Of a DNA stretch of 64,000 nt, positions 8,471-42,747 are shown piece by piece. Under the pieces are notes generated by a model. That model worked only from the letters and a program-made list of their open reading frames with translations, was not told the DNA's origin and ran no database searches. This DNA is from Myxococcota bacterium (GTDB lineage Bacteria > Myxococcota_A > UBA9042), in assembly GCA_049317445.1 (NCBI GenBank), contig JBMOIG010000007.1, forward strand, positions 3,700 to 67,699, written 5' to 3'. Numbering within the stretch: position 1 is the stretch's first letter; each line of letters begins with the position of its first letter. The translations under genes and the position numbers were made by a program.

Positions 8471-8514
8471 GGCGGGCTCCGTTCATCAGCAGGTGGAGTG
8501 CGGTGCAGGTCGGT

Positions 8515-8760: not shown

Positions 8761-8803
8761 GGCGTTCTCGCAGCAGGAGGAAGAGGCGTGTCAGCGGGCG
8801 TGG

Positions 8804-15270: not shown

Positions 15271-15344
15271 GGTCGGCCTCCGTTGAGGGCGCGCGGGCTT
15301 GCCAAAAGCAACAGGGGCACCATAGCAGCGCGGATCGACGGGGG

Positions 15345-21504: not shown

Positions 21505-21508
21505 GGCG

Positions 21509-22309: not shown

Positions 22310-22435
22310 CCGGGATCCTGCAAGGCGAGGCACGGCAACAAGCGGCGCGCACGATAACAGCATCGCAACAAGTTGGGGAGTTTCACCCCGTGTGAGGTCG
22401 CACCGGATCCGCAGACGCAACGGCCGCGGTCGCGT

Positions 22436-25033: not shown

Positions 25034-25781
25034 GCGTCTACCCCGAATGCCATCGCCAAGTGCAGTTCTGTCGCTCGCGCTCGTCGTGCTGCCGACGTTC
25101 GCCTTCTTGCTGGCGTCGTGCGGCAGGTCGCCCGCCCCGCCTCGCGAAGTCGCGACAGCCCCTGTGGCGGCCCAGGCGACCCCGGTCAAAGACCCGCTGC
25201 CGGATCTGGGGCTACCCCGTGAAGGCTATCTGGATGCGCGTCGCCTTCAACTGTGCGCGCGGAAATTTCAGGTGGCCGACGCGCGTGCCGAGGCCATGGC
25301 CATCGCGCTGCTGGCGAGAGATCCCACAGCGACGGAAGTGCCGCTCGATCCGACGGCGATCGTTGCCGCGGCCGACCCCGCGTTGCTGGACCGCTATCGC
25401 AAGGCGCATCAGCTGGCCGACGCCCACCCGTCGACGGCCCAGTGGCTGGCCTCCGAAGTCGAGGGCTGCGTGTACGACGCCCAAGCCGGTCTGGTGCCAC
25501 GCGAGCTCGTCGACCGCTACGCCTTCACGTTTGCCGAGGTCGCCTGCCTGCAGCGCGAGATTCTGGGGCCTGACGGCAAGACCGACCCCCTCGCCCATGC
25601 CCACGCCGCCGCTCGGGTTTTTGCGCAACACGGCTTCGATGCAGCGGCATTCGCACGCTTGGGCTTGGTGTTGGCCCACTATCCGATCGCGCAGAAGGCG
25701 ATGTTCGCTCGCAAGAACGCGCGCTGCGCCCCGAAAGCCCGACCGCCTGCCAACGCAACGCCCGATCGGAGGACTCCGTGA
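25032..25781 (+). CDS. Lipoprotein, hypothetical
   Basis: The signal peptide MRLPRMPSPSAVLSLALVVLPTFAFLLASCG carries the lipobox LLASC. The stop overlaps the next gene's GTG start (GTGA). Confidence 0.65.
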   Translation: MRLPRMPSPSAVLSLALVVLPTFAFLLASCGRSPAPPREVATAPVAAQATPVKDPLPDLGLPREGYLDARRLQLCARKFQVADARAEAMAIALLARDPTATEVPLDPTAIVAAADPALLDRYRKAHQLADAHPSTAQWLASEVEGCVYDAQAGLVPRELVDRYAFTFAEVACLQREILGPDGKTDPLAHAHAAARVFAQHGFDAAAFARLGLVLAHYPIAQKAMFARKNARCAPKARPPANATPDRRTP

Positions 25782-26650
25782 CACAGACCCCTGAGGCCTC
25801 CCCCCACATATTTCAGGTCACGACCGGCCAGATTCAGGCCCCGGACGGCCTGTTGCTGCATCACGCCGAGTGGATCGCCGAGCGCGCAAAGGGCGGCGTG
25901 CTGATCGTCCATGGGTTTGCCGAACACTTGGGGCGGTATACGGAATTTGCCGAGTTTCTGGCCCGCTCTGGCTGGTCGGTGTTCGCGTACGACGCGCGCG
26001 GTCACGGCCGCAGCGCGGGTGTGCGGGCCTATGTCGATCGTTTCGACGAGTACCTGGCCGATCTGGCGACGGTGATGCCGTTTGCGACAGCTCGGCTGGG
26101 CGGCCGGCCGTTCCTGTTCGGCCACTCGATGGGCGGCTTGATCGCGCTGCACGCCGCCGGAGACGCGCCCGACACCATCCGGGGCCTGATCGTGTCCAAC
26201 CCCGCGACCCGCAACAAGATGCAAATCCCGCCGTGGAAGGCCGCCGCAGCCAAGGTCGCCGCGAAGCTGCACCCGACGCTCGCGCTGCCGACCGGCCTGT
26301 CCGGTGCGATGGTCAGTCGCGACCCCGTCGAGGCCAAGGCCTACGATACCGACCCGCTGAACATCAAGCAGGCCACCGCCCGCTGGTACGTCGAGTATCT
26401 GGCGTGTCAGGAGCGGCTGGAGAAGCGCGTGGGCGACGTGGGCAAGGTGCCGATGCTCGCCGTGCTGGGGACGGGAGACGGCGTGATCGACTCGGCCTTC
26501 ACGCGGTCGCTGCTGGGCGGCATCCGCGGCGTGGACCACACCGTTCGCAACTATCCGGACTTCCTGCACGAACTGTTGCATGAGCCCCTCGCCGACCGCG
26601 AGCGGGTGTTTGCCGACGTGCTGGCCTGGCTCGACTCGCACTCTGCCTGA
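25778..26650 (+). CDS. Alpha/beta hydrolase (lysophospholipase / monoacylglycerol-lipase-like)
   Basis: The nucleophile elbow is GHSMGG, the HGF.EH oxyanion region is VHGFAEHLGRY, and a C-terminal His is present. Confidence 0.85.
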   Translation: MTQTPEASPHIFQVTTGQIQAPDGLLLHHAEWIAERAKGGVLIVHGFAEHLGRYTEFAEFLARSGWSVFAYDARGHGRSAGVRAYVDRFDEYLADLATVMPFATARLGGRPFLFGHSMGGLIALHAAGDAPDTIRGLIVSNPATRNKMQIPPWKAAAAKVAAKLHPTLALPTGLSGAMVSRDPVEAKAYDTDPLNIKQATARWYVEYLACQERLEKRVGDVGKVPMLAVLGTGDGVIDSAFTRSLLGGIRGVDHTVRNYPDFLHELLHEPLADRERVFADVLAWLDSHSA

Positions 26651-26660
26651 GGCTACTGAC

Positions 26661-28349
26661 TTGCAAAGCGAATTTGGCCGATACCGCCTGATCCGCCACC
26701 TCGCCACCGGCGGGATGGGCGAGGTCTATCTGGCGGAAGCCAAGGGTGCCGCCGGATTCGCCAAGAAAGTCGTGATCAAGACCGTGCGGTCAGAGCTCTC
26801 GGCGGACCCGGAGCTGGTGCGCCAGTTTGTCGCTGAGGGCCGACTGCTCGAGGCGCTGGACCATCCCAACATCGCGCAGATCCTTGATCTCGGGCTGGTC
26901 GACGGCACGTACTTCCTCGCGATCGAGATGGTCGAGGGCTTTGACCTGCGCGCCCTGCAGAAGGCCCTGCCCGAGTTGCAACCCGGCGTGCCCCCGCGCA
27001 TGTCCGAGGTCGCCACGCTGTACTTGATCGCCTGTGTGGGTCGGGCGCTGCACCACGCCGCGAGTCGCCGCGGCCCTGACGGCAGGCCGCTGTCGATCGT
27101 GCACCACGACGTAACGCCCTCGAACGTGATGGTGCGCCGCGATGGCCACGTCAAGCTCGTGGATTTCGGGGTGGCGCGGTCGGCGCTGCTGAATCGCCTT
27201 TCCGCAGGGGCGCTTCGGGGCAAGCTGCCCTACCTGAGCCCCGAGCACGCGCGTCAGCTGACCGTCGATGCTCGCGCCGACCTGTTCGCGCTGGGACTGG
27301 TGGCTTGGGAGATGCTGACGGGCGAACGCGTGCTCGAGGTCGGCGACCCCGACTCGCTGGAGCAGGCGTACGCGCAGCTGCCCGCCAAGGTCGAAGCGCT
27401 TCGTTTGAGCGGACTTGCAAGTCCGGAGACCGTCGAGCTGATCGCCGACATGACGCGAGTCGAGATCGACCTTCGCTGCGCGGACGCCGAAGAAGTAGCG
27501 CAGCGTGCCGACCGACGGCTGATCGCGTTGGACGAAGCCTCGCCGGCACGAACCTTGGCGCAGGAGCTCGACCCTGCATTCCGGACGTTGGAGGCCCGCG
27601 CGCAGAGCTTCGACCAGCTGCTGGCCCAAACCCTCGGCTTTCAGGGCATGCCCATGCGGCCGCCGATGGAGGGCACCGTCAGCCTGCCCGGCCTCGAGGT
27701 CGTCAACATCGCCGCCTCCAGCGCCCGCGACGAGCCGTCGGCCGCCCCTATGCGCCGCCGCGGTCGCAAGCGCTTGGCCACCGCCGCGCTGATCGCGCTC
27801 GCGCTTGCCGGTGGACTTGGCTGGTGGTTCGGCGCCCGCAGAAGCCCAGAGCCAGCCCCCCTTTCCGTGACCACCGCCGGGGCGAAGACCGCCCGCTCAG
27901 GCTCCGTCGGCGCCGGGGCTGCCTCCTCCCGTGTCGCAGTGGTGCCCCCGACGCGCGTTGGCCCGGTCCAGACACCGTCAGCTGGAAACTCCCGCCCCAA
28001 CGCCAACTTGCGTGTCGCGGTCGGCCTGCCGGACGAGGCTACCGCGGCCGCTGTCGGCGCCGACGACCGATCCGGGGTGCGCAAGGGACGCGAGCGACAG
28101 GCCGGCGACGCGACCATCAAGTTCCGGGTCCTGCCTGCGAATTGTATCGTGACGGTCGACGGTGAGCGCTACCAACCCGGCCGCGACAACCGCTACGAGA
28201 TCCCGGTGCGCGCGGGCGTGCCTCACCGCGTGCGGGTGACGGACCCCTCCAGCCATGAGGTCCGGGAGGTCGACGTCCCGGGGCTGGAGCGCGGGGCGGA
28301 GCGCAGCCTGCAGGCCTTCATGTTTGGCACGGAATTCCGCCAGCCTTGA
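26661..28349 (+). CDS. Hanks-type Ser/Thr protein kinase with a C-terminal transmembrane helix and extracytoplasmic domain
   Basis: Motifs are the Gly loop ATGGMGEVY, the VAIK-like VVIKTV, the catalytic loop HHDVTPSNVMV, DFGVAR and SPEHA. The start is placed at TTG 26661, 10 nt after the upstream stop and preceded by GAGG. ATG 26580 is an alternative with a 71-nt overlap. Confidence 0.8.
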   Translation: MQSEFGRYRLIRHLATGGMGEVYLAEAKGAAGFAKKVVIKTVRSELSADPELVRQFVAEGRLLEALDHPNIAQILDLGLVDGTYFLAIEMVEGFDLRALQKALPELQPGVPPRMSEVATLYLIACVGRALHHAASRRGPDGRPLSIVHHDVTPSNVMVRRDGHVKLVDFGVARSALLNRLSAGALRGKLPYLSPEHARQLTVDARADLFALGLVAWEMLTGERVLEVGDPDSLEQAYAQLPAKVEALRLSGLASPETVELIADMTRVEIDLRCADAEEVAQRADRRLIALDEASPARTLAQELDPAFRTLEARAQSFDQLLAQTLGFQGMPMRPPMEGTVSLPGLEVVNIAASSARDEPSAAPMRRRGRKRLATAALIALALAGGLGWWFGARRSPEPAPLSVTTAGAKTARSGSVGAGAASSRVAVVPPTRVGPVQTPSAGNSRPNANLRVAVGLPDEATAAAVGADDRSGVRKGRERQAGDATIKFRVLPANCIVTVDGERYQPGRDNRYEIPVRAGVPHRVRVTDPSSHEVREVDVPGLERGAERSLQAFMFGTEFRQP

Positions 28350-28431
28350 CGTGTCGGGATTCGCCGATCTGCACCCACCGCCCGCAGGTCGGGGTTCACA
28401 GCCCGAAGCGGAGCAGGTAAGGTGCGCCGCC

Positions 28432-29790
<1,359 letters not shown>

Positions 29791-29994: not shown

Positions 29995-30270
29995 GTGAGC
30001 AAGACCAAGACCACGGTCGAGGTCCGCACCAAGGTAGAGGCCGATGTGGCCCTGCGCACTGCGGATCTGACCGCCCAGGAGGAACAGGTGCTGCGGATGC
30101 GTTACGGCATCGCCATCGACCCCTCTGCTCCCCTCGAGATGCGCGGCGAGGATCATGCTGACGCCCGCTCCCAGCTCGAGGCCATGACCCGTCGCGCACT
30201 CGCCGCCGTCCAAGCCGAGGTCGATACGGCCCGTCGCGACGCGATCATCGAGCGATTGCGCCGCATGTGA
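29995..30270 (+). CDS. Small protein with a sigma-70 region-4-like segment, hypothetical
   Basis: A GTG start at 29995 gives MSKTKTTVEV...LTAQEEQVLRMRYGI..., which resembles sigma region 4.2. A candidate promoter TTGCCA-16-TAGTCT lies near 29898-29926. Confidence 0.45.
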   Translation: MSKTKTTVEVRTKVEADVALRTADLTAQEEQVLRMRYGIAIDPSAPLEMRGEDHADARSQLEAMTRRALAAVQAEVDTARRDAIIERLRRM

Positions 30271-30440
30271 CCGCCCCCGACCCGGGGCCGCGAGGTTCGG
30301 TTGACTTTCGCCGCCACCCGCACCTCTCCCTGCTGGCCCTGGTTTCCCCCTCGGGACGACACCACGACCATCCTTGACTACTGGCCGTCGAAGGGGCATC
30401 CTTTCGCGCCCGTTTGGCCGTTCGACCCGTGGAGTTCCCC

Positions 30441-30602
30441 ATGTCTTCCCCTACCCACAGCACCGACCGTATCCGCAAGGCCAAGAAGACCTCTGCCGGT
30501 CAGGGCCGCAAGCGTGAACAGGCCCGCGCCCAGCGCATCCAGTCCGAGAAGAAGCTCGAGGCTGCTCTGGGTGAGAAGGTCAGCCTGCCCACGATTCGCT
30601 GA
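30441..30602 (+). CDS. Small basic protein (53 aa), hypothetical
   Basis: A GGAG RBS sits 6 nt upstream of the ATG. The protein is Lys/Arg-rich (MSSPTHSTDRIRKAKKTSAGQGRKREQARAQRIQSEKKLEAALGEKVSLPTIR), which is unusual for a random ORF in 70% GC DNA. Confidence 0.45.
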   Translation: MSSPTHSTDRIRKAKKTSAGQGRKREQARAQRIQSEKKLEAALGEKVSLPTIR

Positions 30603-30624
30603 TTCCGCCGACCAGGTACAGGGT

Positions 30625-33546
30625 GTGCTCGGACTTGCGCTTTCCGCTCGTCGGCGCCCTCTAGCTGTCGTCGCGCTCATGGGCGTGCTCGTCGTCGCCG
30701 CGATCTCCTGCGACGGTCTGCAGCGCGCCAGTCGTCCTGACGGTCCCCTGTCACCTCTGCAGCCGCTGCTGGCCGCGCTGGGTCTCGTGCCTGGCGTTCC
30801 TGATCTGCCTGCCGACTGGACCTTCGAACGCGACCAAGTGCCGCAGTCGCCGGCCCTGCTTGCCGTTGACGCGCCGCTGGGCGAACTCCCCGCACCGTTC
30901 CGCCAGCCCGATGCTTTGAAGGCGTGGGAGCTGCAGCGGGAGGGGCGCATGTCCGAGGCCGCCCCCTTGGCCGAGCAGGCGTGGAAGGCGTTGTCCGCCA
31001 ACCCTGAACTGGCGGAAGAGCGCGTCACGTTTGCGTTTTTCCTCGCCGCCGTCCGTCAGGCGCAGGGCAACAAGACCGGCGCCATCGAGGCCGCACGTGT
31101 AGCCACGGCCCATCCCTCGCTGGGGCCCAATGCGGTTCGCTGGCTTGCCGCACGCGCCGACGACCAAGGGCTGCCTTCGCTGGTGCTTTCGATTGCCTAT
31201 GGCCGCGACGAACCGGGGATCCGCCTGCTTCGCGTCCGCGCCCTGCGCCGCACGGGTAGCCCAGCCGCGGCTTGGAGCGAACTCGAAACATTGCCTACAG
31301 AAACAGGCAGTTCTCTGTGGCGGCGGGCGCAGGTCGAGCGGATGCGCACGCTGATCTCCCGCGGCCGCGAAGACGAGGGCATCGCCATCGCCCGTTCGCT
31401 CGTGACCCAGTCGGTCAAGACGTCGCAGGCGGAGGAAGCGGTCGACCTGCTGATCGGCTCGACCGACCAGACGTGGAAGGACCGCCTGAAGCGCCGCCCC
31501 CAGGATGGTCCTGCCGTGCTGGAGGCCCTGGTCTACACCGCGCAGCGCCGACGCTATGCGCGTGCGACGCCTGCCCTGACGGCGCTTGCCGACACGCCGG
31601 GGGTCTCGCTGGCGGTGCAGTGCCACGCGCGCTCGTGGGCTGCACGCACCTGGGATCGCAAACCTGCATTCGACAAGGCTCTTGCCCTCTACGACACCAT
31701 GCCGCCCGCCTGCGACAGCGACCCCGAAGTGCGCGCGCTGCAAGTCGAAGACGGGGGGCTCGACGCGGGCGACCTGGCCTTCCGCATGGGTCGCGCGCTG
31801 TTGTTGTCGGGCAATCCGGAGGGCAAGGCCCACCTCGAGCGGGCGCTGGAGCAGGGACTGACTGGTCTGGACAGCGATGACGCCCACACCGTGCTGGACA
31901 TGGGGAAGACGAACCCCGAAGCCGGGATGCTGCTCGCCAGATTTGGCCCCATCGCCGCCCGCGACTACGCCGAAAAGGACATCTTCGACGTCACGGTTTG
32001 GCTGATCGCCATGGACCATCTGGTCAGCTCGCGGTGGACCGAGGCGCTGACCCTGCTGGACCGTCTGGCGCAGGTGCGCGACAGCGACCCGCCCCCGTCC
32101 GACACCCGCGGCGAGTCGACCGCGCGCTTCGACGACCGTGACTGGGCCCGCGGCCGCGCCGACTACTTCGCCGGCCGCGCGCTCGAGGCGATGGGACGGC
32201 GCGAAGAGGCCCGCAAGCGCTGGCTTCGGGTGGTGCAGCGCCATCCCCTCACGTACTTTGCTGCCCAGTCGTACGCGTGGATCGATGCCGCCGGTGGGCA
32301 GACCGAGATGGCTGCTTTGCAGGCCGTGGTCGCGCCCAAGTCGGGCGAGCCGACGGGACCCGTTCTGGACGCGCAGCTTCTCGCAAAGCAAGGCGTGCAA
32401 CGGGCCCGCTTGCTGGGCCAGCTGGGCTGGAACGAAGAAGCCGGCGACGAACTGGACACTTTGGGTCTGGGGCGAGTCACAGGGCCCGAAGTGCGCTGGG
32501 CGACGGGCGATCCCGGCGGGCTGTGGACGCGGGCAGCACTGGACGACGAAGCCGGTCGCTGGGTGTCCTCCCACTTGATGGGCCGCGATACGCTGCGACG
32601 CTATTCGCTGACCTACCCGCACGACGGCAACCGTCAGGCGTGGAAGATCTCGTATCCACGGGCCTTTCGCTCGCTGATGGACGGCGCCGCGCGGGAGTTC
32701 GGCCTGCACCCGTCGATTGTGTACGCGATCGCCCGCGCCGAGAGCGGCTTCAACCCGCGGGTCGAGTCGAACGCCGCCGCCATCGGCCTGCTGCAGCTGA
32801 TCCTGCCAACCGCCAAGGAGATGGCCAAGCCCCTGGGCCTTGTGGCCGATGCCCAGACCCTGCGCCAGCCTGCGGTCAACGTGCGCTTGGGCGCGCGCTA
32901 CCTCAAGCGACTGCTCGACCGCTTCGAGCGCGAGGCGCAGATGGCGGCCGGCTACAACGCGGGCGGCGGTGCGGTGGGGCGCTGGCGCAAGGTGCGCGGC
33001 CAGTGGCCGTTGGACCTGTACGTCGAGGCGATTCCCTTCCGCGAAACGCGTGACTACGCCAAGCGCGTGCTCTCGAACATCGCCGCCTATCGCAACTTGT
33101 ACGACGGCACGCCCCTGCACATGTTTGGCCTGACACAGAAGCCCGTGCCGACGTCTGAAGAGCCGCCGACCGAGCCCGCCTCATCCGCTGTCGAGGAAGT
33201 CCCGGCCGCTGCGCCGACGCCAGAAGCAGTCGACGTGGCTCCCGCCGACGGCAAGCCGGCCGCGCCCGCGCCAGCTGCCGCGCCCCCGGTCGGCAAGGGA
33301 AAGGCGGCGACCAAACCCGCGGCACCATCCAAGCCGACCGCCAAGCCTGAGCCCGTTGCAAAGGGCAAGGCTGCGACAAAGGCGACGGCCAAGGCTGCGT
33401 CGGTCAAGGGGAAGTCTCACGCGTCTGGCCGTGCGGCCGTCCATGCCCCCGCCAAGAGCGGCAAGGCCGTCACAAAGGCACGACCCGCCACCAAGGCCAA
33501 GGCGGCCCGCCCCAAGACCACCAAGCGACGCCACCCGGCCAAGTGA
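30625..33546 (+). CDS. Soluble lytic murein transglycosylase (Slt70-like superhelical domain + SLT catalytic domain) with a histone-H1-like Lys/Ala/Pro C-terminal tail
   Basis: The SLT motif is ESGFNPRVESNAAAIGLLQLIL...AGYNAGGGAV. The start is taken at GTG 30625, giving the signal peptide MLGLALSARRRPLAVVALMGVLVVAAISC. ATG 30679 is an alternative. The last roughly 100 aa are PAAPAPAAAPPVGKGKAATKPAAPSKPTAKPEP...KAKAARPKTTKRRHPAK. Confidence 0.85.
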   Translation: MLGLALSARRRPLAVVALMGVLVVAAISCDGLQRASRPDGPLSPLQPLLAALGLVPGVPDLPADWTFERDQVPQSPALLAVDAPLGELPAPFRQPDALKAWELQREGRMSEAAPLAEQAWKALSANPELAEERVTFAFFLAAVRQAQGNKTGAIEAARVATAHPSLGPNAVRWLAARADDQGLPSLVLSIAYGRDEPGIRLLRVRALRRTGSPAAAWSELETLPTETGSSLWRRAQVERMRTLISRGREDEGIAIARSLVTQSVKTSQAEEAVDLLIGSTDQTWKDRLKRRPQDGPAVLEALVYTAQRRRYARATPALTALADTPGVSLAVQCHARSWAARTWDRKPAFDKALALYDTMPPACDSDPEVRALQVEDGGLDAGDLAFRMGRALLLSGNPEGKAHLERALEQGLTGLDSDDAHTVLDMGKTNPEAGMLLARFGPIAARDYAEKDIFDVTVWLIAMDHLVSSRWTEALTLLDRLAQVRDSDPPPSDTRGESTARFDDRDWARGRADYFAGRALEAMGRREEARKRWLRVVQRHPLTYFAAQSYAWIDAAGGQTEMAALQAVVAPKSGEPTGPVLDAQLLAKQGVQRARLLGQLGWNEEAGDELDTLGLGRVTGPEVRWATGDPGGLWTRAALDDEAGRWVSSHLMGRDTLRRYSLTYPHDGNRQAWKISYPRAFRSLMDGAAREFGLHPSIVYAIARAESGFNPRVESNAAAIGLLQLILPTAKEMAKPLGLVADAQTLRQPAVNVRLGARYLKRLLDRFEREAQMAAGYNAGGGAVGRWRKVRGQWPLDLYVEAIPFRETRDYAKRVLSNIAAYRNLYDGTPLHMFGLTQKPVPTSEEPPTEPASSAVEEVPAAAPTPEAVDVAPADGKPAAPAPAAAPPVGKGKAATKPAAPSKPTAKPEPVAKGKAATKATAKAASVKGKSHASGRAAVHAPAKSGKAVTKARPATKAKAARPKTTKRRHPAK

Positions 33547-33649: not shown

Positions 33650-35938
33650 GTGTCGCCAGCCGCTGGGGCTGGGACCGCAACTTCGGTGCCGTGCGGGGCA
33701 CCGTCGCGACAAGCCCGCGCAGGATCGCAAGGCGTGAAAGCCCTTCGCACTCCAACACCTTCAGCCAATCCGCCGCCACCGGTGTTCCGGCCCGGTCGGC
33801 TGCCGCCGCACGTTCGCGCCCAGATCGAACCCGTGCTGGCGGTGGTCGGCCACGCCCGCCGTCGCTTGTGGCTGCAGCGCACGTTCGCGCGTCTGACGTC
33901 GGGACTGGCGGTGCCGCTGGCTGCGTTGGGTGCTTGGACGCTGACCGCGCGGCTGGGAGCGGTGCAGGCGGACGGCGACATCTGGGTGTGGTCGGGGTTT
34001 GCGCTGTTGTCGCTGATCGTCCTGTTTGTCGCTCACTTGGGACGTCCGACGTGGCTGCAGGCTGCGCGGAGGACCGACCGCGCCGCCCATGGTCAGGACC
34101 GTCTGACGACCGCGCTGTGGCTCGCGCACGAGCACCGTTCTGACGGGTGGGCACTGGCACAAGCCGCTGCCGCCACTCGCTTTTCGGCACAAGTTGATGT
34201 CCCTGCGCTGTTTCCCTGGCGACGCCCGGCTGCCTGGCCATGGACACTGGCTGCGCTGCTGGTCTTTGCCGCGGGCATGTGGACCCCGCTGCCGTGGGAC
34301 GCGCGCGCGCGGTGGCTGGGACCGCAGCCCGCGCAAGCCGTCGACGTGCGACTGCCAACGCTGCCGGTCGGGTTTGCGACTGCTGCGGACTTGTTGGGCA
34401 AGGACATGGTCTCGCTGCTGGGCGCGGACATCCAACTGCTGGCGGAGGTCGAGGCGCAGGTCGAGGACGCCGACACCAAGGAGTGGCTGCGTCAAGTACG
34501 CGAGGTCGCCGAAGGCGTGGCCGACGGTCGGTTGGACAAACGGCAGGCGCTCGACAAGCTTGCAGAACTGGAAGCGAATCGACCGGACAAGCCTGTCGAC
34601 CCAGCCGCAACCGATTCGACCCAGACGCCGGACAATCCGAGCGGCGAGACGGCCGATACGGCGCAGCAGCGCAAGGACCAAGCGGTGCGCAACGCGGTTC
34701 TGGAAGCGGCAGCTGCGGCAGGCAAGGAATTGCCGAACGAGCAAGATCGCAAGGCCGTCGAGAAGGCGGTGAAGGAGCAGGATCTGGACGCCCTGGCGAA
34801 GCTGGCCGAGAAGCTGGCGGATCGCGACTGGTCGGACGCCGAGGTTGAGAAGTGGATGAAGACGCTGGAGAAATTCGCCGACAAGCTGAAGGACCGCAAA
34901 ATCCCCGAGTCGATGAAGAAGCTGGCGGATCAGGTGGACAGGCTGCAGAAGAAGCGCGCGGCCCAAGGCGGCCTCGGCAAGGCGGATCAGGAGCGACTGA
35001 AGCAGGCCCGCCACGATCTGGAGCAGCTCAAGCGCGACAACGGCGATGCGCTGGCGGCCGAACATGAGGTCGAACGGCTGGAGCGGGGCGCGCGGGCGGC
35101 GGCCGACGAGCTGCGACGCCAGCAAGAGCAAAGTCGGCTGGGACAGAAGGGCGGCGACAAGGCTGAGCGCGACAAGAAGGCGGCGGAAGAGGCCAAGGCG
35201 CGGGCGGCGGCAACCAAGGCGCAGGCACGTGTCGCGGCCGAAGAGCTGCGGCGTGAGAGTCAGGACCAGCAAGGCCGACAGGCACAGCGAATCGGAGAGG
35301 CACGGCTCAAGGAGATTCGCGAAGCCCTTGAACGTGCTGGCGAATCGGATGATTCCCGACGCGAATTCGAGCGCAAGGCCCGCGCCGAGCAGCCCGGCGA
35401 AGGCGACAAGAGCGACAAGGGCGAAGGCGGCAACAAGTCCCGCCTGACCAAGCGCGAGCCCGGCAAGCCCGCCGCCCCCCAGCCCCCGGGCAGTGAGAAG
35501 GGCGAGGACGGCAAGGACAAGGGCATGCAGCTCGGCAAGGGCAAGCTCGAGGGCAAGAGTCGTATCGAGCTGCTGCGCGAGGGCTACGAGCAGAAGGGCC
35601 AAGCCGACGACGGAGAACCCGAGGAGTCGTCCAAGGTTGCCGACAGTCCCGGCACCGGACGCGGCGACGATCGCGAAGATCCCACCCAAGATCGCATCGC
35701 CGGCGGCAAGCGCGAGAAGCTGACCGGCCAGAAGAACGACGGCCCCGACGTCAAGCAGACGTTTGTCGACGCCGCGCGAAAGGGGTTCTCGCAGCAGGGC
35801 TGGCGCGACGTCTACGTCGAGTACAGCGAAGTCGCCGAACAGATGCTGGATGCTGAAGAATTGCCCCCGGGTCGCCGTGCCACCGTTCGCCGCTACTTCG
35901 AGTTGATCCGCCCCCGGACGACTGCCCCCGCCCCCTGA
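33650..35938 (+). CDS. Large membrane protein with a long charged coiled-coil region, first gene of the MoxR/DUF58/VWA cassette
   Basis: Three or four N-terminal transmembrane helices are followed by about 450 aa of E/K/R/A/D-rich coiled coil. The start is uncertain; GTG 33734 is possible. Confidence 0.6.
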   Translation: MSPAAGAGTATSVPCGAPSRQARAGSQGVKALRTPTPSANPPPPVFRPGRLPPHVRAQIEPVLAVVGHARRRLWLQRTFARLTSGLAVPLAALGAWTLTARLGAVQADGDIWVWSGFALLSLIVLFVAHLGRPTWLQAARRTDRAAHGQDRLTTALWLAHEHRSDGWALAQAAAATRFSAQVDVPALFPWRRPAAWPWTLAALLVFAAGMWTPLPWDARARWLGPQPAQAVDVRLPTLPVGFATAADLLGKDMVSLLGADIQLLAEVEAQVEDADTKEWLRQVREVAEGVADGRLDKRQALDKLAELEANRPDKPVDPAATDSTQTPDNPSGETADTAQQRKDQAVRNAVLEAAAAAGKELPNEQDRKAVEKAVKEQDLDALAKLAEKLADRDWSDAEVEKWMKTLEKFADKLKDRKIPESMKKLADQVDRLQKKRAAQGGLGKADQERLKQARHDLEQLKRDNGDALAAEHEVERLERGARAAADELRRQQEQSRLGQKGGDKAERDKKAAEEAKARAAATKAQARVAAEELRRESQDQQGRQAQRIGEARLKEIREALERAGESDDSRREFERKARAEQPGEGDKSDKGEGGNKSRLTKREPGKPAAPQPPGSEKGEDGKDKGMQLGKGKLEGKSRIELLREGYEQKGQADDGEPEESSKVADSPGTGRGDDREDPTQDRIAGGKREKLTGQKNDGPDVKQTFVDAARKGFSQQGWRDVYVEYSEVAEQMLDAEELPPGRRATVRRYFELIRPRTTAPAP

Positions 35939-35989
35939 ACCCAACGCAGGAATCCGGCCGCTTTTCGGCCACATCGCAGAGGCCACGCC

Positions 35990-37003
35990 ATGACCGCCAT
36001 GACCCCGCTCGTCACCAAGGACCCGACTGCCCAGGACATCGACCAAGGGGTCGCCTGGATTACCGAACGCTTGGACGCGCTCAAACTCGAGCTGGGCCGC
36101 GTGATGGTGGGTCAGGAAGACGTCATCGAGGGCGTGTTGCTGGGCCTGCTGGGCGGTGGCCACATCCTGCTGGAAGGCGTGCCGGGGCTCGGAAAGACGC
36201 TGCTGGTGCGAACCCTTGCGTCTGCCCTGAGTCTGGATTTTTCGCGCGTGCAGTTCACCCCCGACCTGATGCCCAGCGACATCGTGGGCGCCCAGGTGCT
36301 GATGGACGACAAGCAGGGCGGCCGCGCCTTCACGTTCCAGAAGGGGCCGGTCTTCACGAACATCCTGCTGGCCGACGAGATCAACCGCGCCACGCCCAAG
36401 GTGCAGTCGGCGCTGCTCGAGGCGATGCAGGAGCGCTCGGTCACCGTCGGCCGGCAGACGTGGCAGCTGACGGCGCCGTTCTTCGTGATGGCGACGCAGA
36501 ACCCGCTGGAGATGGAGGGGACGTACCCGTTGCCGGAGGCGCAGTTGGACCGCTTCATGTTCAAGCTGCTGGTGCCGTTTCCGACCGAAGCGCAGCTGCG
36601 CGAGATCGTGTCCCGCACCATCAAGGCCGAGCAGGTGACGCTGCACGCTGTGATGAAGGCAGAAGAGATTTTGGAGATCCATCGGTTTGCGCTCGAGTGC
36701 CCGGTATCTCCCGACGTCATCGATTACGCCGTTCGGCTAGTGTCCGGGTCGCACGGCACACTGGGACCGGCCAAGCAATACCTGCGCAGCGGCGCAAGTC
36801 CGCGTGCGGTGCAAGCGCTGGTGTTGGGTTCCAAGCTGCGAGCCTTGACACAGGGCCGCTACAACGCCTCGGTCGACGACGTGCGCGCGCTGGCCTTGCC
36901 CGTGCTGCGCCACCGACTGCTGCTGAATTTCGACGCAGAGGCCGACGGCGTGCGCACCGACCACGTGATCGCCCAGATGCTGAAGGAATTGGACAAGAAG
37001 TAG
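35990..37003 (+). CDS. MoxR-family AAA+ ATPase
   Basis: Walker A is LLEGVPGLGKT, Walker B is ILLADEINRA, and the length of 337 aa is typical of MoxR. Confidence 0.92.
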   Translation: MTAMTPLVTKDPTAQDIDQGVAWITERLDALKLELGRVMVGQEDVIEGVLLGLLGGGHILLEGVPGLGKTLLVRTLASALSLDFSRVQFTPDLMPSDIVGAQVLMDDKQGGRAFTFQKGPVFTNILLADEINRATPKVQSALLEAMQERSVTVGRQTWQLTAPFFVMATQNPLEMEGTYPLPEAQLDRFMFKLLVPFPTEAQLREIVSRTIKAEQVTLHAVMKAEEILEIHRFALECPVSPDVIDYAVRLVSGSHGTLGPAKQYLRSGASPRAVQALVLGSKLRALTQGRYNASVDDVRALALPVLRHRLLLNFDAEADGVRTDHVIAQMLKELDKK

Positions 37004-37016
37004 CAGGGAGTTCGCC

Positions 37017-37931
37017 TTGGCCGACGGTTTCCCCCGCAAGATCCGCGACGACCTGTTCGACGCAGCCTTCCTTGGCCGCGTCGAGCAGCTGGCGTTGTTG
37101 TCTCGCCGCATCGCCACCTCGGGCCAGCGGGCGATGCGGCGTTCGCGCAAGATCGGCAGCGGCATCGAGTTCGCCGACCACCGCGAGTACGCCCCCGGCG
37201 ACGACCCCCGGGCCATCGACTGGCTGCTGTATGCCCGCACCGAGCGTCTGCAACTGCGCCTGTACGAAGAGGAAGAGGACCTGAGTGTCTACTTCCTGCT
37301 CGATCGCTCGACTTCGGTGACCATGGCGGCCGACGGACAGCAGAGCCTGTTCGACCGGTCACTGCAGGTCACCGCGGCGCTGTCGTACATTTCGCTGTCG
37401 AACCTGGATCGCGTGTCGGTGGTGCCGTTCAGCGAGGGCATCGAGGCTCCGATGCGACCCCTGCGCGGGCGCAGCCAGTTCTTCCGCATCCTGCGGGTGC
37501 TGTCTGACGTCAAGCAGGGCGGTCGCACCGAAATCCATCGCTCGGTCGAGGCCTTTGCCCGACACCAGCCCCGCCGCGGTCTGGTGGTGCTGCTCAGCGA
37601 CTTCTACGACCCAGCGGGCTTGGGCGACAGCCTGCGCTACCTCGCCTTTCGCGGCTACGAGCCGATGGTGCTGCATCTGGTCGATCGGTCCCTGCTCGAC
37701 GCGCCGGTCCTCGGCGATCTGGCGCTGGTCGATTGCGAGACGGGCGACGTGCGCGAGCTGTGCCTGACGCCCTCGCTGATGGAGAATTACCGCAAGGCAT
37801 TCGACGGGTTCACGGGCGAGATCGAGCGCGCGTCGCGTGAAGCCGGCGCTCGCTGCCTGCAGGTCGATCTGGCGCTGCCGTTTGACGAGGTCGTGATGAA
37901 GGTCTTCCGCGCGGGAGGGTTCCTGGCGTGA
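37017..37931 (+). CDS. DUF58-family protein (MoxR partner)
   Basis: TTG start with an AGGGAG RBS. The DUF58 signature is GSGIEFADHREYAPGDDPRAIDW. Confidence 0.85.
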   Translation: MADGFPRKIRDDLFDAAFLGRVEQLALLSRRIATSGQRAMRRSRKIGSGIEFADHREYAPGDDPRAIDWLLYARTERLQLRLYEEEEDLSVYFLLDRSTSVTMAADGQQSLFDRSLQVTAALSYISLSNLDRVSVVPFSEGIEAPMRPLRGRSQFFRILRVLSDVKQGGRTEIHRSVEAFARHQPRRGLVVLLSDFYDPAGLGDSLRYLAFRGYEPMVLHLVDRSLLDAPVLGDLALVDCETGDVRELCLTPSLMENYRKAFDGFTGEIERASREAGARCLQVDLALPFDEVVMKVFRAGGFLA

Positions 37932-39943
37932 CGGGCTTGCTGACCACCGTGCGCGAGGCCCTGATCCTCGCAGGCCTCATCGGCCTGGCGCTTGCGCTGC
38001 TGTACCTGCTGCGTCCCCGGCGGCGGCGCGTCGAAGTGCCGTTCGGCGCCTTGTGGCAGCGGGTGCTCGCGCAGTCCGAGTCGCGCGCGGTGGGCAAGCA
38101 CTGGCGGCGCCTGTTGTCGCTGCTGCTGATGGCCGCGATCGCAGGGCTGCTGGTCACCGCGTTGGCCGACCCGTTGCTGACGCGGGCGGTGGGTGCCGTG
38201 ACGGCAGGTTCTTCCTATACCGTCTTGATTCTGGACACTTCTGCCTCCATGGGGACGCGCGACGGGCGCGGTGGCCGGTTGGGACCCAAGGTCGCCGGCA
38301 CTCGGCTGGACGAGGCCTTGGGTGCTGTGGCCGAACTGGTGGGCAAGGCGCCGTCGAGCGACCGCTTCCTGCTGTTGTCGGCGACGGGCCATGTGCAGGT
38401 GCGATCGGGCTGGGGCGCGCCACGTCCGACGCTGCTGCGGGCGCTGGACGACGTGAGAACTTCGTCGGGCGGTTTGGACCTGCAGAGGGCGCTCGCGGCG
38501 GCCGATCAGGCATTGGCGGGGCGACCGAGGACCCGCACCGTTCTGATCACCGACGGCGGACCGGCGCTCGTGGCCCCAGCCAAGTGGCCGTCCACGCTGC
38601 AGGTTCTTCGCGTGGGTCCGTCGCGCGGCCGCACCGGCACAAAGGTCGAGCCTGCGCTGCTGCCTCAGGGTTTGGACAACCTGGCCGTCGCTGACGTGCG
38701 CGTCCGACCTGCCGCCGGCGACCCCGGGCGAGGCACGGTCACCGTCACGCTGCGCAACGACGCGCGTCGTCCGGTGCAGGCGCGCCTGTCGATCGCGGCA
38801 TCCGACCGCGCCCAGGATGCCCAGCAATTCGGTCAGGATGCGGCCCTGCGGCGCGTCACGACCCTGACGGTGCTACCTGGGACCAGCCGACACGTGCTCG
38901 AGGACGTCGACCTGTCGGCAGCGCGTCTGGCGGTACGGATCGCTCCGGAGCCGCCTCCCCCCGGCAAGGCCCCGGAATTCGTCGATCTGGCCCCGTACGA
39001 CGACTGGGGCTTCGCCGTACTGGCAGAGCGGCATGAGCTGCACGTGCTCTTGGTCACCGAAGGAAACCTGTTTCTGGAAGCGGCGTTGTTGGCGTCTGAC
39101 CGGGTGCGCCTGCACGCAATCCTGCCGTCGGCCTACAAGCCCGAAACCTATGCCTGGAAGGCGCGCGTTCGCCACGGCATCGACGTCGTGGTGCTGGACC
39201 AACTGGCGCAGCCGCTGCCCGACGGCATGCCCGGTCTGCGCCTACTGCTGCGTTCGGAAGATCCCAAGGCGCGCTATGCCCAAGCGCCCGAGGTCGTCGT
39301 TCGCGCCGCGGACCACGCACTGATGCGAGGCGTCAGCTTTCAGGACACGAATTTCGATCAAATTCGAGTGCTTGCACCGCAGCCCGGCGATGTGGTGCTC
39401 GCGGCGGCGTTGCCGTCGGCCCCGGTCATGGTGGCGCGGACGGCCCCGGTGCGAACCGTCGAGTGGGGATTGGACCTGCTCGAGACGGACTTGGGCGGAC
39501 GATTCGCCATGCCCATCCTGATGGACGACGCCGTCGCTTGGCTGGCGGGTGAAGAGGAGCCGCTGCTTGCGCCGCTTGAGCTGGGCCGGCCGTGGGCGAT
39601 CGAGGCTGCGGGCGTAGGTCCTGGCTGGAAGCACTTGGAACCCGGCCAGAAAGAGCCCAAGCCCGCGCGAACCTCTGCCGGCCAACTGCTCGCCGCCAGC
39701 GAGACGCACGGCGTGCAGGTGTGGCTGTCGCCCGACGGCCGGGAAGTGGCGCGCGCGACCGTACTGCCGCCCGCCGAAGGTCCGGCTGAGATCAAGGTGC
39801 TGGGACGCGCCCCGCCTGGCGTCGATGCGTCCGAAGGGTCCGACCCGACTCCCCCCAAGCCCCGCTGGACGTGGCTGTTGCTCGCCGCGACCGTGGTCCT
39901 TGCCGCCGAGTTCGGTCTTTACCTGCGCAGGAGGACCGTATGA
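37928..39943 (+). CDS. BatA-like VWA-domain membrane protein
   Basis: GTGA start overlap. It has two N-terminal transmembrane helices, the MIDAS motif VLILDTSASM, and a C-terminal transmembrane helix. Confidence 0.85.
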   Translation: MTGLLTTVREALILAGLIGLALALLYLLRPRRRRVEVPFGALWQRVLAQSESRAVGKHWRRLLSLLLMAAIAGLLVTALADPLLTRAVGAVTAGSSYTVLILDTSASMGTRDGRGGRLGPKVAGTRLDEALGAVAELVGKAPSSDRFLLLSATGHVQVRSGWGAPRPTLLRALDDVRTSSGGLDLQRALAAADQALAGRPRTRTVLITDGGPALVAPAKWPSTLQVLRVGPSRGRTGTKVEPALLPQGLDNLAVADVRVRPAAGDPGRGTVTVTLRNDARRPVQARLSIAASDRAQDAQQFGQDAALRRVTTLTVLPGTSRHVLEDVDLSAARLAVRIAPEPPPPGKAPEFVDLAPYDDWGFAVLAERHELHVLLVTEGNLFLEAALLASDRVRLHAILPSAYKPETYAWKARVRHGIDVVVLDQLAQPLPDGMPGLRLLLRSEDPKARYAQAPEVVVRAADHALMRGVSFQDTNFDQIRVLAPQPGDVVLAAALPSAPVMVARTAPVRTVEWGLDLLETDLGGRFAMPILMDDAVAWLAGEEEPLLAPLELGRPWAIEAAGVGPGWKHLEPGQKEPKPARTSAGQLLAASETHGVQVWLSPDGREVARATVLPPAEGPAEIKVLGRAPPGVDASEGSDPTPPKPRWTWLLLAATVVLAAEFGLYLRRRTV

Positions 39944-42747
39944 CGCGGTGGTTCTCCTCTCGTTCCGCGGGGTTGTATGCGGGTGCTCTGGCATCATTGG
40001 CCGCCGCGATCACGGCCGCCTATTGGGTGCCGTCGGAGCTGACGCACCTCGAGGCGTTGGGCATCTCTTTCGCCCACCCGCGCTGGCTTTGGCTCGCCGC
40101 ACTTGCGCTCGGGCTGCCGCTGTTGGCTCCGTTCGGCCTGACCGACCTGCCCAAGGCCCAGCGTGCGCTGCAGGTGCTGGTCCGCGCGGCTCTGGTGGTG
40201 TTGCTGGCCGTCGCCGCCGCCGGTCCCCGGTCGCTGCAAGAGGTTCCGCGCCGCGTTCAGATCCTTCATCTGGTTGATCGGTCCGAGTCGGTGCCCGACG
40301 AATTGCTGGCCGCCGCTGCCGCCTCCGCACGCAACACGAACCAGCAAGTCCTCAAGATCGAAGCGGATCAATCGCCAATCGACGCAGCGGACGAAGAGCG
40401 TCTGCCCCCCGTGACGGTGGTTGCCTTTGACGGAGAGGCCGAGCGCCTGCCTTGGCCGCCGACCGACACCGATGCCGAGGCGGGCGATGCCGTTCCGCCC
40501 CCCGTGATCGCCCGCCATCCCGCCACCGGCCGCGAGACCGACCTCGCCGGGGCGCTGAACGTGGCGCTGGGCCTGTTGGACGGCCAGAGCGTGCCCCACA
40601 TCGTGATCTGGAGCGACGGCATCGAGACGCGCGGCGACGCAAGTGAGCTCGTCGAGACGCTGAGAGCTGCCGGCGTGCACGTCCACACCCCGGCACTGCC
40701 GCCGATGCCGGTGCAGGCAGAGTTCCTGATCGAGCGATTCGACCTGCCGCCGGTAGTGCGCGCCAACGTACCGTTTCCAGTGGCCATTTCCGTACAGTCG
40801 AGTGCGATCGCCCGGGTGTCCTGCCGCGTCAAGGCGCCCGGTCAGGACCTGCCACCCGTCATCGCGCAGGTTCAGGCTGGGGCAACACGCGTCGAGCTGG
40901 GCCAGCTGCGGCTGAAGGAAGGCGGCACGGCAGAGCTGAGTGCGATGTGTGATCTCGTCGACGGCGCGGACCGCTTCGCCGCCAACAACCACCTGCGCGC
41001 ACGCGTGATCGTGCGCGCGCGCCCAAAGATTTTGTACGTCGAGGGCGTGGCCACTCAAGCGCAGCAACTTGCGCGAGCCTTGGGTGACGACTACGAGGTC
41101 GACGTCCGCGGCGGCGACGGCCTGCCACGCAACCTGCTGGCCTTGAAGCAGTTTCAGGCGATCATCCTGTCGGACGTGCCGCGCGTGACGCCGGCCGGCG
41201 TGCAGCTGCTCAGTGACAGCGACATGCGCAACCTGCACGCGTATGCGCAACAGGGCGGAGGACTGTTGGTCATCGGCGGAGAAAACAGCCTTGGTTCGGG
41301 TGGTTACCAGAACACCTATCTCGACAAGCATGTGCTGCCAGTGCAAATGGACATCGAGAGCTCAGTCGAGAACCCCACGATCGCCCTGATGCTGCTGATC
41401 GACCGGTCCGGCTCGATGTCGGGCAGCAAGATGGAGCTGGCCAAGGAAGCCGCCCGTGCCACCGCCGAGGCCATGGCCCGGGAAGACCGCATTGGCGTCG
41501 TCGCCTTCGACAGCGAGGCCCGCACCGCCGTCCGGCTGCAGCGCGCCGGCAATCGCTACCGCATCGCGACCGACATTTCCAAGCTGACGCCGAGCGGCGG
41601 CACGCACATCTACCCCGCGCTCGAGATCGCGTGGCAGGCGCTGCAGTCGACGCCCGCGAAGATCAAGCACGTGATCGTCCTGACAGACGGTCAGGCGCCG
41701 CGCGCCGGCATCGACCCCTTGGTGCGCCAGATGCGTCGCGGCGGCATCACCGTGTCCAGCGTCGGTATCGGCGCCGACGTCGACCGCAGCCTGCTGGAAA
41801 TGATCGCCGACCGGGGCGGCGGCCGCGCGTATTTCACCGACCGACCAGAGACGTTGCCTCGCATTTTCGTCAAGGAAACCAAGATCATCGCAGGCGACCC
41901 GCTGGTCGAGACCGCGATCCGTGCGCGTCGCGTGGCGGGCGGTCGGGTCGACTTGCTGCGAGGTGTGGCGATCGACAATGCCCCAGTGCTGACGGGTCTG
42001 GTGCCGTCCAAGGTCAAGCCGGGCGCCGAAGAGCTGGTGCGGGCCTCCACCGGCCAGCCACTGCTCGTGAGGTGGCGTCTGGGGTTGGGCAAGGTCACGG
42101 TGTGGACCAGCGACCTCAAGGGCCGCTGGGCCGCCGCCTGGATCGGCTGGCCGGGCTACCCGATCTTCGCGCGACAGTTGGTGCGCGACCTGCTGCAAGA
42201 GGACCTGGGGCTGACGGCGACCGTGCGGCTGGCACGCGAGCGTGATCAACTTCGCATCGCGGCCGACGCCATCGATGAAGACGACCGCTATCTGCAAGGA
42301 CTTTTTGGCACCGCAGAGGTCCAATTGCCCAACGGATCCCGCCTGCGGCTGCCCCTGCCCGAGGTCGCTGCGGGGCGCTACGAGACCACCGTGCCGCTGT
42401 CGGATCTTGGCCCCTACGACGTCCTGGTCCAGCTGCGTGCAAGCCCCGACCAGCCCGTTCTCGCGACCGGCCGCGCCACCGCCGTCCACCCCTACCCCGA
42501 CGAGTACCGTCTGCCCGACCCTGCCGGTTCCAGCCTGGAAGCGCTGGTCAAGGGCACCGGTGGCCGCATGGGCAGCGGGCCGACCGACTGGGTCGACGAT
42601 GGCGGCGCCACCCACCGCGGCTGGCAATGGCTGTGGCCCGATCTGGTGCGTTGGGGGCTGCTGCTGCTGTTGCTGGACGTGGGACTGCGGCGGGTGCGTC
42701 TGGGCCGTGCGCCGTCGATCAAGTGGCATACCTTGCGGCGCAAGTAA
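39940..42747 (+). CDS. VWA-domain membrane protein (large BatB-like)
   Basis: ATGA overlap with the upstream gene; an AGGAGG RBS. It has an N-terminal transmembrane helix, the MIDAS motif LLIDRSGSMSG, and a C-terminal transmembrane helix (WGLLLLLLDVGL). Confidence 0.85.
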   Translation: MTRWFSSRSAGLYAGALASLAAAITAAYWVPSELTHLEALGISFAHPRWLWLAALALGLPLLAPFGLTDLPKAQRALQVLVRAALVVLLAVAAAGPRSLQEVPRRVQILHLVDRSESVPDELLAAAAASARNTNQQVLKIEADQSPIDAADEERLPPVTVVAFDGEAERLPWPPTDTDAEAGDAVPPPVIARHPATGRETDLAGALNVALGLLDGQSVPHIVIWSDGIETRGDASELVETLRAAGVHVHTPALPPMPVQAEFLIERFDLPPVVRANVPFPVAISVQSSAIARVSCRVKAPGQDLPPVIAQVQAGATRVELGQLRLKEGGTAELSAMCDLVDGADRFAANNHLRARVIVRARPKILYVEGVATQAQQLARALGDDYEVDVRGGDGLPRNLLALKQFQAIILSDVPRVTPAGVQLLSDSDMRNLHAYAQQGGGLLVIGGENSLGSGGYQNTYLDKHVLPVQMDIESSVENPTIALMLLIDRSGSMSGSKMELAKEAARATAEAMAREDRIGVVAFDSEARTAVRLQRAGNRYRIATDISKLTPSGGTHIYPALEIAWQALQSTPAKIKHVIVLTDGQAPRAGIDPLVRQMRRGGITVSSVGIGADVDRSLLEMIADRGGGRAYFTDRPETLPRIFVKETKIIAGDPLVETAIRARRVAGGRVDLLRGVAIDNAPVLTGLVPSKVKPGAEELVRASTGQPLLVRWRLGLGKVTVWTSDLKGRWAAAWIGWPGYPIFARQLVRDLLQEDLGLTATVRLARERDQLRIAADAIDEDDRYLQGLFGTAEVQLPNGSRLRLPLPEVAAGRYETTVPLSDLGPYDVLVQLRASPDQPVLATGRATAVHPYPDEYRLPDPAGSSLEALVKGTGGRMGSGPTDWVDDGGATHRGWQWLWPDLVRWGLLLLLLDVGLRRVRLGRAPSIKWHTLRRK

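Follow-up and report, generated by a model that had tools for sequence, protein, structure and literature searches.

The genes studied here lie in a 64,000-nucleotide stretch of contig JBMOIG010000007.1 (positions 3,700 to 67,699, forward strand) from the Myxococcota bacterium assembly GCA_049317445.1. This whole stretch, which is 67% G+C, is referred to as the window. Between positions 33650 and 42747 the window carries five co-directional genes on the + strand, recognised from the open reading frame (ORF) listing and Pfam. These are g1, which encodes a predicted inner-membrane protein; g2, a MoxR-type AAA+ ATPase; g3, a DUF58 protein; g4, a membrane protein with BatA_N and VWA domains; and g5, a membrane protein with two VWA domains and a GATase1-like module. 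The five genes are an ancient conserved unit found across the Myxococcota, with g1 as the constant fifth component, and g1 belongs to a large conserved family that is unnamed and uncurated in databases. Literature searches found no study of the Myxococcota form of the cassette. An earlier note on this DNA had described the locus as a Bat-like cassette with lineage-specific expansions, headed by a giant coiled-coil membrane protein.

Layout of the cassette and its proteins

The ORF list places the genes at 33650-35938, 35990-37003, 37017-37931, 37928-39943 and 39871/39940-42747 (all +). The g1/g2 and g2/g3 gaps are 51 nt and 13 nt. The stop codon of g3 and the start codon of g4 share a 4-nt GTGA (37928-37931), and the stop of g4 and the start of g5 share a 4-nt ATGA (39940-39943). 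Both overlaps were read directly in the sequence and are preceded by Shine-Dalgarno-like motifs (GGGAGGG and GGAGGA, respectively), which confirms the co-directional, coupled arrangement noted earlier. The G+C content at third codon positions (GC3) is 0.80-0.87 across all five frames, and the pattern over the three positions (GC1/GC2/GC3) is typical of genuine genes; the long ORFs on the antisense strand are shadows of the kind expected in high-GC DNA. A terminator scan found 4 sites where 6.3 are expected by chance and is uninformative, as is a sigma-70 promoter scan. Matches to a sigma-54 promoter upstream of g1 are no commoner than chance, and none is suitably placed. An Rfam scan over 29-45 kb returned no element.

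The first gene is probably shorter than its ORF. The ORF opens at 33650 and would encode 762 aa, the length previously given to the protein. Since the first 132 nt are non-coding in composition (GC3 of 0.55, GC2 of 0.82) and a 97% identical database protein of 718 aa (P0001) begins at a GTG equivalent to 33782, g1 most likely starts at the GTG at 33782 and encodes 718 aa (33782..35938, +). Residue numbers below nevertheless follow the 762-aa ORF.

The N-terminal membrane module of g1 (33893..34291, +), defined by hydropathy and an AlphaFold2 model, has three transmembrane (TM) helices: TM1 (aa 82-101), TM2 (111-129) and TM3 (196-214). TM2 and TM3 are separated by a loop of about 65 aa (aa 132-195, nt 34043-34234) with the motif A.R.D....D.L.TAL. 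In the family this motif takes the form DR..L.DRLSTAL, or more widely A.R.D....L.D(R)L(S/T)(T/S)AL, and it is present in g1; residues A139, D143 and A155 are invariant in the alignment of distant family members. Based on the positive-inside rule, the N-terminus is predicted to be inside, with the basic N-terminus and the TM2-TM3 loop in the cytoplasm and everything after TM3 in the periplasm.

The remainder of g1 has three parts. A charged helical region (aa 245-579; 34382..35389, +), delimited by AlphaFold2 secondary structure and composition, is 32-44% charged and contains 11 helices, one of which spans 76 residues (504-579). It is followed by a disordered G/K/E/D-rich linker of about 120 aa (aa 581-700; 35390..35749, +), where the predicted local distance difference test (pLDDT) is <50 over 581-702. 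In relatives the linker is Q/G-rich and variable in length, and the alignment there is gapped and of low complexity. The protein ends with a conserved three-helix domain of about 55 aa (35750..35917, +), recognised by alignment with distant members. In g1 it reads KGF..(G)W..VY.EY..VA..ML..E.LPPGRR..VRRYFELIRPR, which agrees with the family consensus KGF(A)..Y..V..DY..V.E..(M/L)..E.(I/V/L)P.G.R..V(K/R)RYF.LI(K/R)P. The domain lies at or near the protein end in all relatives, and G712, V721, Y725, P739, G741, R748, Y749, I753 and P755 are invariant in distant members.

The AlphaFold2 model of g1, built from 31 sequences, has a mean pLDDT of 67.6. It is confident from about aa 45 to 215 (pLDDT 85-96 over aa 50-210), where the loop folds as a small helical bundle between TM2 and TM3, and fairly confident for the helices of 245-579 (about 66-91 by block); the C-terminal domain is helical. 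In the earlier description, the larger bundle is reduced to three TM helices and the coiled coil of about 450 aa is replaced by about 335 aa of broken helices, the linker and the C-terminal domain.

The second gene, g2 (35990..37003, +), encodes a MoxR-type AAA+ ATPase with an AAA_3 core (PF07726, E 7.9e-64, 213.9 bits against a cut-off of 27) and an AAA_lid_2 domain (PF17863, E 8e-14, 51.5 bits). Walker A (GVPGLGKT at aa 63) and Walker B (ILLADE at aa 125) are both intact. There is a secondary match to the bpMoxR model PF20030 (53.8 bits). The core with its lid, the DUF58 gene directly downstream and the VWA/MIDAS neighbours (MIDAS stands for metal ion-dependent adhesion site) are the marks of a MoxR cassette. 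Judged solely by this DUF58/VWA neighbourhood, g2 may belong to the MoxR Proper (MRP) subfamily. The third gene, g3 (37017..37931, +), encodes a DUF58 protein of VWA-like fold (PF01882, E 3.1e-32; VWA_2, 29.3 bits) with a MIDAS DxSxS at aa 96. Both genes are canonical, as had been stated. Since g3 has no hydrophobic segment and hence no TM segment, it is predicted to be cytoplasmic, as is g2, a hexameric AAA+ protein.

The fourth gene, g4 (37928..39943, +), encodes 671 aa. Pfam and hydropathy divide the protein into a BatA_N double-TM anchor (aa 12-82; PF07584, 30.4 bits, cut-off 25.9), a VWA domain (aa 98-210; PF13519, VWA_2, 52.5 bits) with its MIDAS DxSxS at aa 103, some 430 aa that match no named domain, and a TM helix at 648-666. 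The NCBIfam double-TM anchor model TIGR02226 scores 21.8 bits, slightly below its cut-off of 23.05. A single-sequence structure model of g4 was useless (pLDDT 40.6). By the positive-inside rule, the Arg-rich loop between the BatA_N helices would be cytoplasmic and the body, which ends in the C-terminal anchor, periplasmic.

The fifth gene, g5 (39940..42747, +), encodes 935 aa. Pfam, motifs and hydropathy give the order of three N-terminal TM helices, a degenerate VWA domain, a GATase1-like module (aa 392-481; PF07090, 35.8 bits, cut-off 27), a canonical VWA domain (aa 483-640; PF00092, E 3.4e-26), a C-terminal region of about 250 aa and an anchor. MIDAS DxSxS motifs occur at aa 113, in the degenerate VWA domain, and at aa 488, so the MIDAS motifs and terminal TM helices attributed earlier to both VWA proteins are present. 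The nucleophile position of the GATase1-like module has no Cys ('LLVIGGENS'); the module is probably structural and non-catalytic for this reason. The C-terminal hydrophobic anchor, 'WGLLLLLLDVGL', was recognised by eye in the translated sequence and is below the hydropathy threshold of 1.5. The same positive-inside reasoning would put the body between the three N-terminal helices and this anchor in the periplasm. A periplasmic body in g4 and g5 agrees with the orientation of the BatA-type protein BB0173, whose VWA domain faces the periplasm by experiment (PMC5700661).

Conservation of the cassette and the g1 family

The close lineage is represented by 24 loci from a genome scan with the g1 alignment. 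These come from uncultured Myxococcota metagenome-assembled genomes (MAGs), mostly from freshwater lakes, and the best locus (CAJBNH010000008) is 97% identical. The window itself likewise belongs to an uncultured member of the phylum from freshwater. The order g1-MoxR-DUF58-VWA-VWA is present in every close-lineage locus long enough to show it. A 1081-aa lytic transglycosylase gene with an SLT domain (30301..33546, +; PF01464, E 2.6e-25) is directly upstream in 14 of the 24 loci, and an opposite-strand UvrB gene is downstream in 10. Since flanking genes are often conserved too, synteny in the close lineage carries no weight for functional linkage.

Distant loci are more informative. A metagenome scan seeded on the g1 C-terminal motif only gave 424 confirmed loci, of which 80 were kept; their g1 relatives are about 30% identical to g1. 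Among loci whose downstream sequence is long enough to tell, the gene right after the g1-like gene is MoxR in 52/66; DUF58 follows in 36/43, and g4-like and g5-like genes are each present in 23/27. The SLT gene is directly upstream of the g1-like gene in no distant locus and is a neighbour in the close lineage only, outside the core cassette. In one locus (L025, g1-like protein P0178), the g1-like gene is directly upstream of MoxR, DUF58, a BatA/VWA protein of 687 aa and a VWA/GATase1_like protein of 996 aa, and the flanks (ABC transporter, BipA) are unrelated to those of the window. A 3.5-Mb contig from a Polyangiaceae-like MAG (L113) also carries all five genes, with opposite-strand genes on either side. 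Its DUF58/g4 and g4/g5 junctions share coordinates, so the coupling has been kept as well. The reading of the five genes as a single unit is supported by this gene order, which is kept in most distant loci despite unrelated flanks. In a clade of five other loci (L034, L031, L036, L043, L095), 1.7-4.9 kb separate the g1-like gene from MoxR on its downstream side. In L034 this interval contains an ORF for a saccharopine-dehydrogenase-like NAD(P)-binding protein (8149-9240). Four records carrying a myxobacterial locus (L001, L007, L008, L022) are titled 'uncultured Enterobacteriaceae bacterium' or 'Klebsiella pneumoniae' and are evidently mislabelled.

The g4-like and g5-like proteins are about 630-690 aa and 880-1000 aa throughout the cassette type. 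Large VWA proteins are therefore the normal state of this cassette and not a local expansion. The earlier observation that they are much larger than Bacteroides BatA and BatB is correct (about 2-3x), but its reading as a lineage-specific expansion is not, since these large proteins are conserved across the Myxococcota and the g1 family comprises at least 730 clusters at E<=1e-10.

The breadth of the g1 family depends on the search used. A word-indexed search returned 30 homologues, all from the close lineage. A g1 profile run against 1.84 billion representatives (clusters at 50% identity) returned 2,898 at E<=1e-3, 730 at E<=1e-10 and 77 at E<=1e-30, and many of these matches align end to end. 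Relatives that are only about 25% identical keep the whole plan: a basic N-terminus (RVRRRLRLQ), two TM helices, the loop of about 65 aa, a third hydrophobic segment, long charged helices, a variable G/Q/K/E-rich linker and a C-terminal stretch of about 55 aa ending in ..VPPGxRxYV(K/R)RYFxLI(K/R)P. The sources name these relatives 'hypothetical protein', with the exception of one member labelled 'septal ring factor EnvC', and the named organisms are Polyangiaceae or Myxococcales.

The family has no recognisable relative of known type. g1 has no Pfam or NCBIfam match, ten distant members have no significant Pfam domain, and 16 distant members searched against NCBIfam at E<=10 gave nothing beyond coiled-coil noise. 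Scanning g1 and its relatives with Pfam, NCBIfam and PADLOC brought up only noise of this kind, such as SMC and Rad50. Neither a sequence profile search of the PDB with g1 nor a Foldseek search of its AlphaFold2 model against the PDB gave a significant match (best E 0.2, TM 0.11). The expectation that the first gene would not belong to a characterised family was thus borne out.

Two known families resemble g1 in architecture. DUF4175/TIGR02302, an alphaproteobacterial low-complexity membrane protein whose DUF4175 model the earlier note had proposed for a domain search, has two to three N-terminal TM helices and then a long stretch that includes low-complexity, Gln/Gly-rich sequence. However, g1 is not a detectable member of this family, and no DUF4175/TIGR02302 hidden Markov model matches g1 or 31 members (15 searched with Pfam, 16 with NCBIfam, E<=10). 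TolA of the Tol-Pal system is built like g1, in that an N-terminal membrane anchor is followed by a long, charged, helical stretch in the periplasm and then by a small C-terminal domain that is conserved. There is no sequence or fold match between the two, and g1 differs in having three TM helices and an AAA+ partner where TolA has a proton-motive-force stator.

A g1-like module may also occur in other phyla. On the Deinococcus aetherius plasmid pDAETH-2 (L112, 7534-8967), a 477-aa hypothetical protein is encoded directly upstream of MoxR, DUF58 and a 1334-aa protein with BatA_N and VWA domains. It matches the N-terminal three-TM/loop module of g1, including 'DRrlgLHDlLgTAL'. In a small search this match scored weakly (i-E 9e-6), but its position is consistent. 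The protein has no C-terminal g1 domain and no Pfam domain. This hints that the N-terminal module could be a general partner of MoxR cassettes beyond the Myxococcota. No g1-like ORF was detected at a Gemmatirosa MoxR/DUF58 locus, and the plasmid collection contained no match to g4.

MoxR/DUF58/VWA cassettes of MRP type are among the most widespread bacterial operons lacking a known function. The cassette type itself is already known, and the finding is unsurprising to a specialist. The analysis adds a constant fifth partner in the Myxococcota. This partner combines three TM helices with a rod and a linker, and two of its elements are sharply conserved, the predicted cytoplasmic loop and the C-terminal domain. 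It offers a concrete and testable handle on how a cytoplasmic AAA+ ATPase may be coupled to periplasm-facing VWA proteins. With at least 730 clusters at 50% identity, the g1 family merits a curated model, which would be useful for annotation.

Proposed function and its alternatives

The DUF58 matches in the plasmid collection provided comparators in Bacteroides, Deinococcus and Gemmatirosa, but neither a rhizobial cmd operon nor a DUF4175 sequence. The cmdA-cmdD genes of Rhizobium leguminosarum (RL3499-RL3502), a cassette with a MoxR of the MRP subfamily, have the order MoxR-DUF58-membrane-membrane, which matches g2 to g5; this likeness is one of gene order and type. The operon is described as four genes, reportedly with no g1-type gene upstream. 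Mutants of the cmd operon have defects in envelope integrity and cell shape (PMC5700661; PMC3893208; bioRxiv 10.1101/551135).

The Bacteroides Bat operon is also similar to the cassette, with MoxR, then DUF58, then VWA proteins with a BatA-type anchor. In B. finegoldii (L110) the order is MoxR-DUF58-BatD family-VWA (327 aa)-VWA (342 aa)-TPR-BatD-TPR, so its VWA proteins are shorter than those of the cassette (671 and 935 aa). Judged against BatA and BatB, g4 has BatA_N and VWA but also an extra ~430 aa and a C-terminal TM helix, while g5 has VWA but no BatA_N match. Bacteroides adds BatD-family and TPR proteins (BatC/D/E) and has no g1-like gene, whereas the cassette shows the reverse. Pfam found no TPR, BatD or SH3 domain of the BatC, BatD or BatE type in the five genes or in the flanking SLT and UvrB genes, apart from a sub-threshold TPR_6 match in the SLT protein (E 0.008, 17.2 bits, cut-off 26.3). 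The label Bat-like fits only MoxR, DUF58, BatA_N and VWA, equivalents of BatC, BatD and BatE being absent. The Borrelia BB0170-BB0176 and Leptospira bat clusters share MoxR, DUF58 and VWA membrane proteins with the cassette, and the periplasmic VWA domain of BB0173 matches that predicted for g4. They have BatD/TPR/SH3 proteins and short VWA proteins, and no g1-type protein (PMC5700661, PMC3557215).

The favoured interpretation, with a probability of roughly 0.55, is that the five genes form one operon, a Myxococcota-wide MRP-type cassette in which MoxR and DUF58 remodel a membrane complex of g1, g4 and g5 with a role in the envelope. g1, g4 and g5 would be inner-membrane proteins with their bulk in the periplasm. 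The periplasmic part of g1 would comprise the rod of charged helices, then a flexible linker and finally the C-terminal domain. That of g4 and g5 would comprise MIDAS-bearing VWA domains together with beta-rich and non-catalytic GATase1-like modules, held to the membrane by a tether at each end. The sole conserved cytoplasmic handles would be the TM2-TM3 loop of g1 and the short loops of g4 (Arg-rich, BatA_N) and g5. Since MoxR and DUF58 have no TM segment and cytoplasmic loops are few, remodelling is proposed to take place through those loops, with MoxR and DUF58 spending ATP on the assembly or remodelling of the complex. The periplasmic VWA/MIDAS sites, together with the rod and C-terminal domain of g1, could then engage envelope partners. 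By analogy with cmdA-D of R. leguminosarum, the cassette most likely serves envelope integrity or morphogenesis. The idea put forward in the earlier note, that a large envelope complex is assembled with the help of a chaperone, is a reasonable inference.

Several points weigh against this interpretation. The cassette is known from sequence and prediction only, and its topology from hydropathy and the positive-inside rule. TM3 of g1 is moderately hydrophobic in the window (Kyte-Doolittle score of 1.32), while among 47 family members the score is mostly 1.8-2.9 (19-residue window). MoxR could make no direct contact with the g4 and g5 VWA domains if these are periplasmic, which makes coupling through the loops speculative. 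At least five g1-like loci (L030, L042, L073, L104, L105) have no MoxR in the 2.8-10 kb downstream. Related cassettes are linked elsewhere to aerotolerance (B. fragilis) and stress tolerance (Francisella). These phenotypes disagree with one another, and Leptospira biflexa bat mutants have no phenotype (PMC3557215).

A more specific and quite doubtful version of the proposal makes g1 a periplasm-spanning tether. The loop would be gripped by MoxR/DUF58, the C-terminal domain would dock on a g4 or g5 MIDAS site, the cell wall or the outer membrane, and the cassette would act as an AAA+-powered trans-envelope transducer of force or signal. If true, the cassette would be an ATP-driven counterpart of Tol-Pal/TonB, and the whole MRP-type MoxR/VWA class would gain a mechanistic role.

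The shared MoxR, DUF58, BatA_N and VWA parts could instead mark the cassette as a homologue of the Bat operon that gives protection from oxidative stress, for instance by maintaining a reduced periplasm (PMC3557215 summarises the Bat proposal). This is unlikely, since BatC (TPR), BatD and BatE (SH3/TPR) are absent, g1 is without a Bacteroides counterpart, no redox-active domain or Cys motif was found in the cassette, Leptospira bat mutants have no oxidative-stress defect (PMC3557215) and the hosts are aerobic Myxococcota. It is similarly improbable that g1 works with the upstream SLT protein, as a periplasmic coiled-coil partner of TolA/EnvC type, and merely adjoins an independent MoxR-DUF58-VWA-VWA operon. 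The frequent SLT neighbour in the close lineage, the 51-nt gap between g1 and moxR, the EnvC label on one family member and the few g1-like genes unlinked to MoxR would all fit such a partnership; however, distant g1-like genes stay directly upstream of MoxR where the SLT gene is absent, and L113 has an opposite-strand gene upstream of g1. UvrB is an equally conserved neighbour in the close lineage, which leaves that synteny weightless.

MoxR and DUF58 may also act as a maturation chaperone, inserting a metal or cofactor into an unrelated enzyme as NorQ/NorD, CoxD and the MoxR of methanol dehydrogenase (MDH) do, with the membrane proteins as adaptors. This role is established for several MoxR subfamilies (PMC3893208; PMC9976466; PMC13036017) and gives the idea some chance here, although no candidate client enzyme is conserved beside the cassette, the flanks vary among lineages and the conserved part consists of three membrane proteins. 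A conflict or defence system of the NTP-dependent MoxR-VWA type is very improbable. Myxobacteria are rich in such systems (PMC7159879), and g2 has its bpMoxR match (PF20030, 53.8 bits), but the AAA_3 match is much stronger (213.9 bits) and Pfam found no domain of beta-propeller or effector type. In PADLOC, g2 had nothing but marginal matches to generic AAA+ models (E 2e-5 to 2e-4, none above noise), and the locus is stable, vertically conserved and single-context across the phylum.

Neighbouring genes and the second VWA locus

The window has a second VWA locus at 19198-25189 (-), which is real and has no MoxR. Its genes are 22436-25189 (-), for a 917-aa putative lipoprotein in which Pfam finds no domain; 21509-22420 (-), for a DUF4159 protein; and 19198-21504 (-), for a 768-aa g5 paralogue without the inserted canonical VWA domain. 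The 917-aa protein was compared with g1 as a possible relative and is unrelated. Co-occurrence of the cassette with this locus (previously drawn at 19198-25033) does not extend beyond the immediate lineage; the locus is near the cassette in the close lineage only, and distant loci lack it within 10 kb.

Further genes lie upstream of the SLT gene. A Ser/Thr protein kinase gene (26580-28349, +) overlaps the gene of an FHA-domain sigma-54 enhancer-binding protein (28255-29790, +). Both run in the same direction as the SLT gene and the cassette, and the close lineage keeps them upstream. A Ser/Thr kinase gene is the direct upstream neighbour of the g1-like gene in one Polyangiaceae-like clade (L049, L058, L061, L066, L072, L074, L093, L098). 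Between the FHA/sigma-54 gene and the SLT gene, an ORF of about 91 aa (29995-30270, +) with 'EEQVLRMRYGIAID' resembles sigma-70 region 4 alone.

Two further genes adjoin the second VWA locus at 14488-19114 (-). One encodes a beta-lactamase-fold protein (15345-17300) and the other an M1 peptidase with HEAT repeats (16547-19114). The two ORFs overlap; therefore, their starts need revision.

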